A DNA stretch of 64,000 nucleotides from an uncultured Verrucomicrobiales bacterium (GTDB taxonomy: Bacteria; Verrucomicrobiota; Verrucomicrobiia; Verrucomicrobiales; DEV007), in the NCBI GenBank assembly GCA_938091905.1, contig CALKOM010000023.1, positions 1 to 64,000 on the forward strand, written 5' to 3'. Numbering within the stretch: the first letter of the stretch is position 1; every line of letters begins with the position of its first letter. Position numbers: made by a program. Of the stretch, positions 43,143 to 46,100 are shown one piece after another.

Positions 43143-46100
43143 GGGAACCATGGCGTCGACAGAAAGAATGCCGGTCTGCACCGGCTGACTCACCGACTTA
43201 CGCTTAATGATACCAGGAGCGATCTTCTCAACCGGATAAGTAGCGGTCGTCTTGATGTCGCCTTTGCCGTCGATCGGCTTACCAATGGTATCGACCACAC
43301 GGCCTAACAATTCTTTACCAACCGGCACGGAGAGCAATTTACCTGTCGTCTTGGCTTCGTCGCCTTCTTTGACGTCGAGGCCATCGCCGAGCAAGACGCA
43401 ACCAACTTCGGTTTCCTCAAGGTTCAATGCGATGCCGAAAGCGCCGCCGGGAAACTCGATCATCTCGTTGAGCATGACTTCCGTCAGGCCCTCAATCTTG
43501 GCCACGCCGTCACCTGTTTCGCGAACGACGCCGACGTTCGACTTGGCAACCGCAGTCTTAAGACCGCCGATTTCCGATTCCAGTTCCTGAAGAATGTTAC
43601 TCATTTCCGGTTGTGTTCAGTTGTTCTAACTAAAGTGTAATTATGAAAAGGCTTGGCTGAGCTGGTCGAGACGCGTCTTCACGCTCCCGTCCCAAATATC
43701 ACTACCAACACGCACACGCATCCCGCCTAACAAGTCAGGCACGACTTTAAACTCGCTCGTCACGTCATCGCCGTAACGGGCTTTCAAATCTTTCAACACA
43801 CCGTCTTTTAAATCATCCGAAAGCTTCTCAGCGCTCTCGACGATAGCGTGTCGTTTCTCGAGATCCAAACGGATCAAACGCTGGAAAGCAGTGAGGATGC
43901 CGAGGTAACCCCGAGGCTTCTCTTCGCCAACGCGCTTCACGATCATCTTCACACGATCGATATCCAGCTTACCCTCGCTCGCGCAGGACTGAAACAGTGC
44001 CCGAGCGTGGCGTAGCGCGTCTTTTGAAACTTTCATGGAAACGTAATAAAGCGAACAGAGACCTTAATTGGCCAATTGGGTCGCAGTCTCCTTGTTGATC
44101 TTGTCCTGGTCCTCGCTGTTGAGAACCTTGCCAGTCACCTTGCCCGTGGCACTGATGACGAGCTTTCCGAAATCCTTCTTCAAGCCCGCTAGCTGTTGCT
44201 CACGCTCAAGCTTCGTCGCCTCACGAGCCTTCGCGACGATGTCCTGAGCTTCTTGTGACGCTTTCGCGCGCTCTTTGTCGCCAAGCGCTGATGCGCTCTC
44301 TTTCGCCTCGGCAATCAAACGAGCAGCCGTCTCATTGGCCTCGTCAATCTTGGCAGCTGCAGCGGCCTCGGTATCCGCAAGCTGCGCCTTCACCTTCTCA
44401 CGATCAGCCTCGGTGTCTTCAATGCGCTTCCGACGCTCTTCCAGAATCTCTTGGATAGGCCCGAAGGCGAATTTCTTCAGGATAGCATAAACGATCAGGA
44501 AGATGAGAATCTGAGCGATGAAATTCGTCCAGTAGATACCTAGATCAGAAAGAATCTTACCCATTGAGCCAGAAGCGCTTGAAGTTAAAGAGAGGGAGAG
44601 AGGAGAAGCGGTCGTTGGCGGAGGTTATTCTCCGCCAACGACCAAGGATTGTTCAGCCTAGTTGCCTTGGAGGGCCATGATCAGACCATAAATAGCGACA
44701 GCCTCAGCCAGTGCCATTCCGATAATTCCGATGGTCAAGATCTTACCAAAGGCACCAGGGTTACGGCCAACGGCCTGCGTGGCACCCAGTCCAACTAGTC
44801 CCACACCGACACCGGCGCCGAGACCTGCAAGACCCAAGGAAAGTGAACCACCGAGACCACCGGCAGCAGCTGCTGCTTCGGCCACGATTGGCGTGATGCT
44901 TGAGAGTAAGTTTGTCATGTTCGTGTTAAGTTATTCTAACGTTATTCTTGCTTGTTCTATTGATTCTGACACCCACTGACTTCGCATGGTCACGCCAGAA
45001 AAATGTTTCTAGTGATCTTCTTCCTCGTGGGCGGTAGAGAGCTGAATGTAAACGGCGCAAAGGAGAGCAAAGACAGTGGCTTGCAGCACACCGACGAGAA
45101 TCTCAAGGAAGTAGAAGGGAAGCGTGAAACCAATCTTCGAGATGAACGACAGTGTCGGGCCTAGCCCAAACGTGTCTCCCAAGGTCGTCATCGCGTGAAG
45201 AAGATTCTCACCAGCGAAGACATTACCGAAGAGTCGGAGCGACAGCGTTACCGGGCGGAAGATAATGGAGACCACTTCAATCACGCCCACAAAGAGGAAA
45301 ATGGGAATGAGAACGAGCTTCATGACCCCAGTCAAACCACCCTTTGGGGCGAAGATGTGCTTCACAAACTCAACAGGGCCGGTCTCCACCATGGTAATGT
45401 AGAACCAGACTACCATCGAACACATCGCAATTGCCAAGGTGAGGTTCATGTCTGCCGTAGCAGGACGCAGCAGTGGAATCTTAGGCTCCGCTGACAACCC
45501 TAAGAAGCCCATCTGAGTGCCTTCATGGCCGATGCCGATCGTTCCAACCCCTGGAAGCAAGCCAAACCAGTTTGCCACGAGGATGTAGACAAAGATCGTG
45601 CATAGCAAAGGGAAGGCTCTTGGAGCTACCTTAGGTCCCACAACCTGCTCGACCTGATTGTATAGAAATTCGAATACGAACTCGACGCCATTCTGTACCG
45701 GCCCGGGGATTAGCGTTGGACTCTTCGTCCCGGCGCGTACCAAGAAGTAGATGATCGCCATGACGATCATCGCCACAAAGACTGAGTTCGTCAAAGCAGC
45801 CAGCAAGCCCGTTGGCCCGACGAGGGGCTGTGCCGTAATCGGCACGCTCGCGAGTTGGAAAGCGGTGACTGGAAGGTCTCCTAAGGAAGAGAACATGCGT
45901 TAAAAAGCTCTGGTCGGTTCGGCGTTTGACAGCGTTTCCTAAGCGGATGCGCAATCGAGTTTTCCCGTTTAAAACAAGGCTGATTCCTTAGCAAGATCAA
46001 TTTGTGAAATATTTCACAAAGTCCGGATTCCGTTCGCCAAAACCAACTAATTCTTCGCCCTCCACCCACCGTCTCTGATCAGATCTTTCGAGCGGGATCT

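Follow-up and report, generated by a model that had tools for sequence, protein, structure and literature searches.

The box in front of the ATP synthase operon is one of six perfect copies of a palindrome in the genome of this Verrucomicrobiales bacterium. Judging from their sequence and distribution, the six boxes are real and very likely operators of Rex, a sensor of the NADH/NAD+ ratio. Through such boxes, Rex probably represses the aerobic NADH-to-oxygen chain together with ATP synthase, and the sites appear to keep scattered aerobic energy genes under one control. The link of the box to Rex and to respiratory genes, proposed in a genome-wide survey's note, was strongly supported by the motif, the intact rex gene, the co-occurrence of box and rex, the targets, and a clean rex deletion in a relative.

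The box before the atp operon and its genomic counterparts

The window, i.e., the whole stretch of 64,000 nucleotides that was analyzed, contains the Rex-type palindrome TTGTGAA-N4-TTCACAA without mismatch at 46002–46019 (TTGTGAAATATTTCACAA), with the minus-strand atpB start (45896) 106 bases downstream. It is the sole match with up to two mismatches in the whole window, where 0.16 matches were expected at that tolerance. A pattern search of the entire genome (G000, 6.19 Mb) found exactly six perfect boxes at the positions that the survey's note had given, and no perfect palindrome with any of 12 other spacer lengths (0–3 and 5–12). The excess over chance was also borne out, but the expected number, formerly 0.008, was recomputed as 0.014 from base composition or 0.025 from half-site counts. 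All six boxes share the form TTGTGAAA-N2-TTTCACAA. Two one-mismatch boxes both lie within open reading frames, and the 16 two-mismatch boxes correspond to background (11–27 for other spacers); thus, none of the latter was added to the regulon of this genome.

The genes behind the six boxes are nuoBC, nuoDEF, nuoGHIJKLMN, atpBEFHAGDC, actA–E with oxidase genes, and a polyprenyl synthase gene, and each palindrome is placed upstream of its genes, in the promoter region, as expected of a Rex operator. The earlier description of all six as intergenic held with two reservations. The box on contig C5 is intergenic only if nuoB starts later than the mechanical first start, as the mechanical frame (22928–23551) overlaps it by 11 bases; matches of nuoB homologues mostly begin at residues 22–39, and two begin at residues 1–2. 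The nuoD box on contig C8 is overlapped by an unannotated frame on the opposite strand.

Table 1. The atp operon, its predicted promoter, and the box in the window
Feature	Position	Strand	Basis or remark
Predicted Rex-type operator, TTGTGAAATATTTCACAA	46002..46019		pattern match; consensus as in PMC2883068 (excerpt)
Spacer ATTGATC, 7 bases	45995..46001	-	with the operator's last AA, forms an A/T tract 5–9 bases upstream of the -35
Predicted -35 hexamer TTGCTA, atp promoter	45989..45994	-	TTG at 5–8 bases in 77 of 77 class-U sites
Predicted -10 hexamer TAAACG	45966..45971	-	pattern; weak match
atpB, F0 subunit a, first gene of the operon	45009..45896	-	TIGR01131 over cut-off
atpE, F0 subunit c	44658..44918	-	family hits below cut-off; operon position
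atpF, F0 subunit b	44064..44564	-	TIGR01144
atpH, F1 delta	43641..44036	-	hits below cut-off
atpA, F1 alpha	42072..43604	-	TIGR00962
atpG, F1 gamma	41155..42042	-	TIGR01146
atpD, F1 beta	39700..41118	-	TIGR01039
atpC, F1 epsilon	39262..39666	-	TIGR01216

The A/T tract before the atp -35 (Table 1) would be the upstream contact site of the polymerase, and transcription is predicted to start near 45959. A strict scan for E. coli-type sigma-70 promoters between 45800 and 46300 returned none; it missed the predicted promoter because the local -35 is of the TTGC type. Among 25 tRNA promoters of this genome, picked from 34 tRNAs, TTGC is likewise the commonest -35 start (15). RNA contigs from four runs were compared with 44000–46600, where two runs gave none and the other two yielded short contigs, which end at 45869 and 45899; as contigs cannot show starts, they were uninformative for the promoter. 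Upstream of the box, a 118-aa frame on the minus strand (46834–47190) matched an RNA ligase domain over roughly half of the model (PF09414); small frames lie between it and the box, and it may be a broken gene. Further on, the plus strand encodes two very large, probably secreted proteins of 1883 aa (47379–53030) and 1572 aa (53220–57938), with partial CglD-like, Amuc_1099-like, choice-of-anchor D, and TafC-like hits.

Targets of the box and the divided complex I operon

In 14 relatives of the order, 101 of the 102 perfect boxes were examined, one site of G160 being left out, and all 101 precede energy genes, namely, nuo pieces, atp, alternative complex III (ACIII), oxidase, polyprenyl synthase, ndh, and hppA. 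The previous statement that every examined site precedes such a gene, then based on 45 sites, now extends to these 101 and the six of this genome. The targets of the 107 boxes are actA (16), atpB and nuoD (15 each), nuoB (12), polyprenyl synthase and nuoG (11 each), nuoE (5), ndh-like genes, nuoF, and nuoH (4 each), nuoM (3), and, once each, actC, atpA, atpD, a ccoN-like gene, ccoS, hppA, and nuoI. In G160, two perfect boxes lie 25 bases apart before actA (L135, 1201 and 1226). In the case of other orders, 40 boxes from 16 genomes were picked for family spread and do not comprise every site; 36 of them precede atp, nuo, ndh, polyprenyl synthase, mqnE, actA, cydA, or the leader gene of a ctaA/ctaD cluster. 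The leader gene accounts for nine sites, with the oxidase gene confirmed by Pfam for six. Two of the remaining boxes precede rnfB-like or nuoG-like genes, one an aminotransferase gene, and one nothing identified.

The polyprenyl synthase behind the box belongs to PF00348. It had been named octaprenyl diphosphate synthase, a label that was not upheld: the octaprenyl model scored 181 bits against a cut-off of 412, the solanesyl and heptaprenyl models score comparably, and, with no chain-length model at cut-off, C40 specificity is not established. The mqnE boxes outside the order support reading the enzyme as a quinone side-chain synthase. Downstream of its gene come rnpA, yidD, and yidC, the last encoding a membrane insertase (C23, 98035–101915; L180, 4036–7913), and if this cluster is co-transcribed, Rex would tune the YidC insertase as well. 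On contig C115 (L177, 2317–20000), a single box precedes one long cluster that runs from ACIII through a divergent ccoN/ccoO-like pair to aa3-type oxidase genes.

The complex I operon is broken at different places in different genomes. When nuoG–N was mapped in 10 rex-bearing genomes, separate units were found to start at nuoG (8), nuoH (4), nuoI (1), or nuoM (3), and all 16 unit starts carry a perfect box. Where nuoG directly follows nuoF (G099 and G006), no box precedes nuoG, and nuoE (five genomes) and nuoF (four) are boxed in genomes of families f4 and f5 in which nuoF does not follow nuoE. Similarly, atpB, atpA, and atpD each have a box of their own in G060, which has 14 boxes altogether. 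Thus, the number of boxes tracks fragmentation, and either breaks gained boxes or fusions lost them. As the complex I genes are scattered, the regulon would do the coordinating work of a single operon. One enzyme's operon broken variously, with a shared operator at the starts, constitutes a natural series for testing whether a regulon can replace an operon. Beside the nuoG box, frames at L176, 11900–12812, appear transposase-like by eye.

Several genes of the chain carry no box. Neither nuoA nor sdhC has one in five of five genomes, nuoB lacks it in the rex-bearing genomes G006, G112, and G154, as does nuoF in G112, and hppA is unboxed in G000. For nuoA, the five genomes were G000, G010, G060, G113, and G169, in all of which it lies apart from the other nuo genes (in G000 on contig C14, L182). 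Stoichiometric coordination is therefore incomplete, and the regulon comprises the NADH-to-oxygen branch and ATP synthase; control of the whole respiratory chain, as formerly claimed, was an overstatement. The accompanying claim that fermentation is not controlled holds for the upstream regions of four ldh-like genes and one pflB, none of which has a box, but is partly trivial because a pflB match is lacking in G000 and no L-LDH scored over cut-off there. Cytochrome bd and Nqr were not found in any of the five genomes searched, so their missing box is moot. Unboxed formate-dehydrogenase-like and nuoEF-like genes occur in G000 (C167, 19580–20671; C114, L262, 2858–4534), and a selenocysteine tRNA is encoded on C27.

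The Rex protein and its co-occurrence with the box

G000 has a single, intact rex (contig C40), and its 207-aa product is close to the approximately 210 aa of the family. The product scored over cut-off for PF06971 and PF02629 (winged helix and Rossmann NAD(H)-binding domain) and for NF003995, NF003993, and other Rex models of NCBIfam, and it aligns end to end with solved Rex structures. Arg50, Arg51, and Arg62, the base-contacting residues of S. agalactiae Rex in the recognition helix and wing (excerpt of PMC8376106), correspond to R, K, and R; the R-K pair is found in the solved Rex 5zz5 and is conserved in the order alignment. The dinucleotide-binding loop is glycine-rich (GVGNLG, residues 90–95), and the box motif is the tested Rex consensus of S. 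aureus and Streptomyces (excerpts of PMC2883068 and PMC5355995). Autoregulation of rex was not supported, since the best upstream match has at least four mismatches in all 28 rex loci compared. A lone half-site lies directly before the rex start of G000 (L001, 1660–1666), with similar half-sites in a few relatives.

A regulator of the CRP/FNR family, or yet another one, could read the box in place of Rex, as the core TGTGA-N6-TCACA lies within it; the overlap of both motifs is noted in PMC2883068 (excerpt), and G000 contains 12 such cores. However, six of the 12 are the Rex-type boxes, no CRP-type helix-turn-helix scored over cut-off (a weak hit is a GntR protein), and none of the eight cyclic-nucleotide-binding proteins has a DNA-binding domain. 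A search of this 95% complete genome thus found no regulator combining cyclic-nucleotide binding with a C-terminal helix-turn-helix. Moreover, the boxes disappear along with rex, and a reader other than Rex was considered very improbable.

The assignment of the box to Rex agrees with its distribution, in which operator and rex occur together as expected of a Rex regulon. Among 200 relatives of the order, 158 have box and rex, 38 have neither, four have the box only, and none has rex only (rex counted over cut-off); the relatives share kinship, so such counts are not independent events. Boxes were found in 163 of 201 order genomes, and the reversed control pattern in two of 201. The 38 genomes without box and rex comprise all 35 of genus g18 and three of seven of genus g35. 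Family f2 is therefore not uniformly negative, and the loss is not family-wide: 17 of 55 f2 genomes are boxed. At least two losses of rex and box were counted within the order, without a tree. In other orders of the class (210 genomes), the box is present in 41 of 67 genomes with rex versus five of 143 without, and 26 of the 67 rex-bearing genomes have no perfect box. The four box-only genomes of the order (G127, G173, G041, and G092; 86–98% complete) have 4–7 perfect boxes, and either an assembly gap or a very recent rex loss would account for this state. A protein search for Rex in 16 rex-less genomes gave no hit; it was run without a positive control and agrees with the other rex counts.

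In the g35 genomes G175, G145, and G199, rex is flanked by genes for an acyltransferase and a sigma factor. In G130, the two genes are adjacent and rex is gone, which is a real, clean deletion. The rex-less g35 genomes G110 (one contig), G130, and G196 retain atpB, nuoD, and ACIII as well as nuoB. In their promoters, the -35 is still in register and the box is decaying. G130 shows remnants, with one mismatch before nuoD, the promoter-side half only before nuoB, and the A/T center only before atpB; decay is further advanced in G110 and G196. As these genomes keep the target genes yet lose the boxes, the box follows rex and not its targets, and such lineages present operator decay in progress. 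None of eight near-matches fetched from g35 and g18 genomes was intergenic before an energy gene; one, in G145, closely precedes nuoF and falls within an opposite-strand frame or at its end. Outside the order, G328 has a second, divergent rex, 32% identical to that of G000, beside a box and a nuoG-like gene (C21, L220), which suggests a local hydrogenase-type regulon.

Box position and the direction of control

The sites before nuoB/D/E/F/G/H/M, atp, ndh, hppA, and ccoS (class U) were distinguished from those before actA, actC, ccoN, polyprenyl synthase, and nuoI (class D); the classes were set by target gene after the pattern had been seen and serve as description, not as a blind test. In class U, TTG follows 5–8 bases on the gene side in 77 of 77 boxes (7 bases in 50, 5 in 15, 6 in 11, and 8 in one), versus eight of 77 at the mirror distance on the far side and about 7% expected by chance. 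An A-x-x-x-T pattern of a -10 lies 16–18 bases beyond the TTG in 51 of 77, compared with 14% after a random TTG, and the flanking base is A in 70 of 77 on the promoter side versus 16 of 77 on the far side. Outside the order, 24 of 40 boxes have TTG at 5–7 bases. Class-D boxes lie close to the start codon, and only one of 30, a tandem box, has the position upstream of the -35. Promoters upstream of class-D boxes were found by pattern at only nine of 30 sites, where the box starts 2–12 bases (seven sites) or about 45 bases (two) past the -10. Some targets change class between lineages: actA is upstream-type in two of two cases outside the order versus one of 16 inside (the tandem-box artefact), ndh in none of two outside versus four of four inside, and atpB in three of eight outside versus 15 of 15 inside.

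These positions also bear on three other readings of the palindrome, as an RNA hairpin, a repeat relic, or a regulator-free promoter element. It can fold (-6.7 kcal/mol), and class-D boxes, which are often flanked by GC on both sides, are probably transcribed, but 77 of the 107 boxes precede the predicted -35 and would stay untranscribed. The arms are exact and lack covariation, and the boxes are confined to energy genes and decay after rex loss; such an origin is scarcely credible.

The near arm of the class-U box coincides with an A/T tract that ordinary G000 promoters also have. At positions 5–9 before the -35, the A/T fraction is 0.82 in tRNA promoters and 0.87 at upstream-type boxes, versus 0.46 in the background, and orthologous promoters of rex-less genomes keep the tract. 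The C-terminal domain of the polymerase alpha subunit binds the minor groove at the A/T tract upstream of the -35. The Rex wing touches the minor groove at the operator (excerpt of PMC8376106), and Rex could plausibly compete with the alpha C-terminal domain at the near arm.

Under repression, Rex would occupy its operators at low NADH; once respiratory capacity becomes limiting, NADH would accumulate and Rex would be released, and the complex I pieces, the quinone side-chain synthase, ACIII with the oxidases, and ATP synthase would rise jointly. The operator would be centered at about -49 to -52 in most promoters of nuo and atp, just upstream of the -35, and Rex would cover the A/T contact of the polymerase. 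Since the near arm is this tract, Rex probably turns these essential promoters down, not off. At actA and polyprenyl synthase, the operator would lie at or after the start site and block initiation or elongation; boxes so placed are hard to read except as repression. The upstream position alone fits either sign of control. However, as actA, ndh, and atpB change position class between lineages, a constant sign is simplest, and both the variable spacing to the -35 (5–8 bases) and the unchanged -35 of promoters that persist after rex loss were counted for repression.

Alternatively, Rex may activate the upstream-type promoters (nuo, atp, and ndh) by contacting the polymerase and repress actA and polyprenyl synthase, so that a build-up of NADH in low oxygen would lower complex I and ATP synthase and raise ACIII–oxidase and quinone. 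The invariable upstream position before non-homologous genes is a classic activator signature, to which the promoter-side A and the change of the near-arm CAC to A/T after rex loss in G110 and G196, possibly a compensation, can be added. Activator roles have been proposed for S. mutans Rex, with a site said to differ from the repressor site (excerpt of PMC3441419). Nevertheless, activation would need sign flips for targets that switch class, activation of ndh and nuo by NAD+-bound Rex would reverse the feedback demonstrated for Streptomyces, the loss of rex left no visible change in the -35, and ordinary promoter structure, as in the tRNA promoters, accounts for the A/T flank. Activation was judged unlikely, yet it keeps some weight because fixed upstream spacing is typical of activators and because of the proposals for S. 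mutans. It is likewise doubtful that a two-way switch activates complex I and ATP synthase and represses ACIII–oxidase and quinone synthesis, each new nuo break being fitted with an operator–promoter module; if true, NADH would rebalance the chain by pushing one end up and the other down.

Repression, the preferred reading, has its closest precedent in S. avermitilis, where rex deletion raises nuo and atp, and Rex repression of both was shown; the regulon there also takes in ndh2, hppA, a terminal oxidase, and heme synthesis (excerpt of PMC5355995). The present regulon resembles it in the consensus, the single Rex, and the nuo, atp, ndh, hppA, and terminal oxidase targets. It differs from what the excerpt describes in that the S. 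avermitilis sites have 1–3 mismatches and overlap the -35 or the start, whereas those here are perfect and mostly upstream of the -35, precede each fragment of the split nuo operon, and extend to ACIII, heme-copper oxidases, and quinone synthesis; rex autoregulation was not seen here. The S. aureus sites share the motif (TTGTGAA-W4-TTCACAA, with an A/T-rich center) and lie in or a few bases up- or downstream of promoters, but they control fermentation and nitrate respiration genes, which none of the 107 order boxes precedes (excerpt of PMC2883068). Desulfovibrio alaskensis G20 is likewise Gram-negative, with Rex controlling core energy conservation complexes, although these serve anaerobic sulfate respiration, unlike here; in its rex mutant, energy genes were derepressed less than 2-fold (excerpt of PMC4045070). 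The general consensus across phyla of Ravcheev et al. (2012) is TTGTGAANNNNTTCACAA, as cited in excerpts of PMC5317091 and PMC4045070.

Rex and its operator have been described before, as has Rex control of nuo, atp, ndh, and hppA; control of nuo and atp is unsurprising by itself, having been shown in S. avermitilis (excerpt of PMC5355995). The fixed promoter position and the one-box-per-fragment pattern are additions to the survey's note, whose failure to find a paper joining "Rex regulon" and Verrucomicrobia was repeated. In the literature searched, which did not extend to most subscription papers and supplements, no Rex regulon in this phylum, ACIII target, box per split complex I fragment, operator fixed upstream of the -35, or link between Rex and the UP element was found; database predictions may exist. 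The comparative regulons of Ravcheev and colleagues reportedly include none reconstructed for Verrucomicrobiota. A widespread, little-studied bacterial group would thereby gain a defined regulon for global redox control, whose operators are unusually clean, and the fixed operator position offers a sharp test of whether Rex blocks the upstream polymerase contact or even activates. The box also flags uncharacterized respiratory genes, such as the conserved gene of approximately 240 aa that, boxed, leads ctaA/ctaD clusters in other orders (L190, L206, L210, L215, L216, L218, L221, L223, and L225). This gene gave a weak carboxypeptidase-regulatory-like domain hit in both of the two cases scanned with Pfam and is likely tied to the oxidase.
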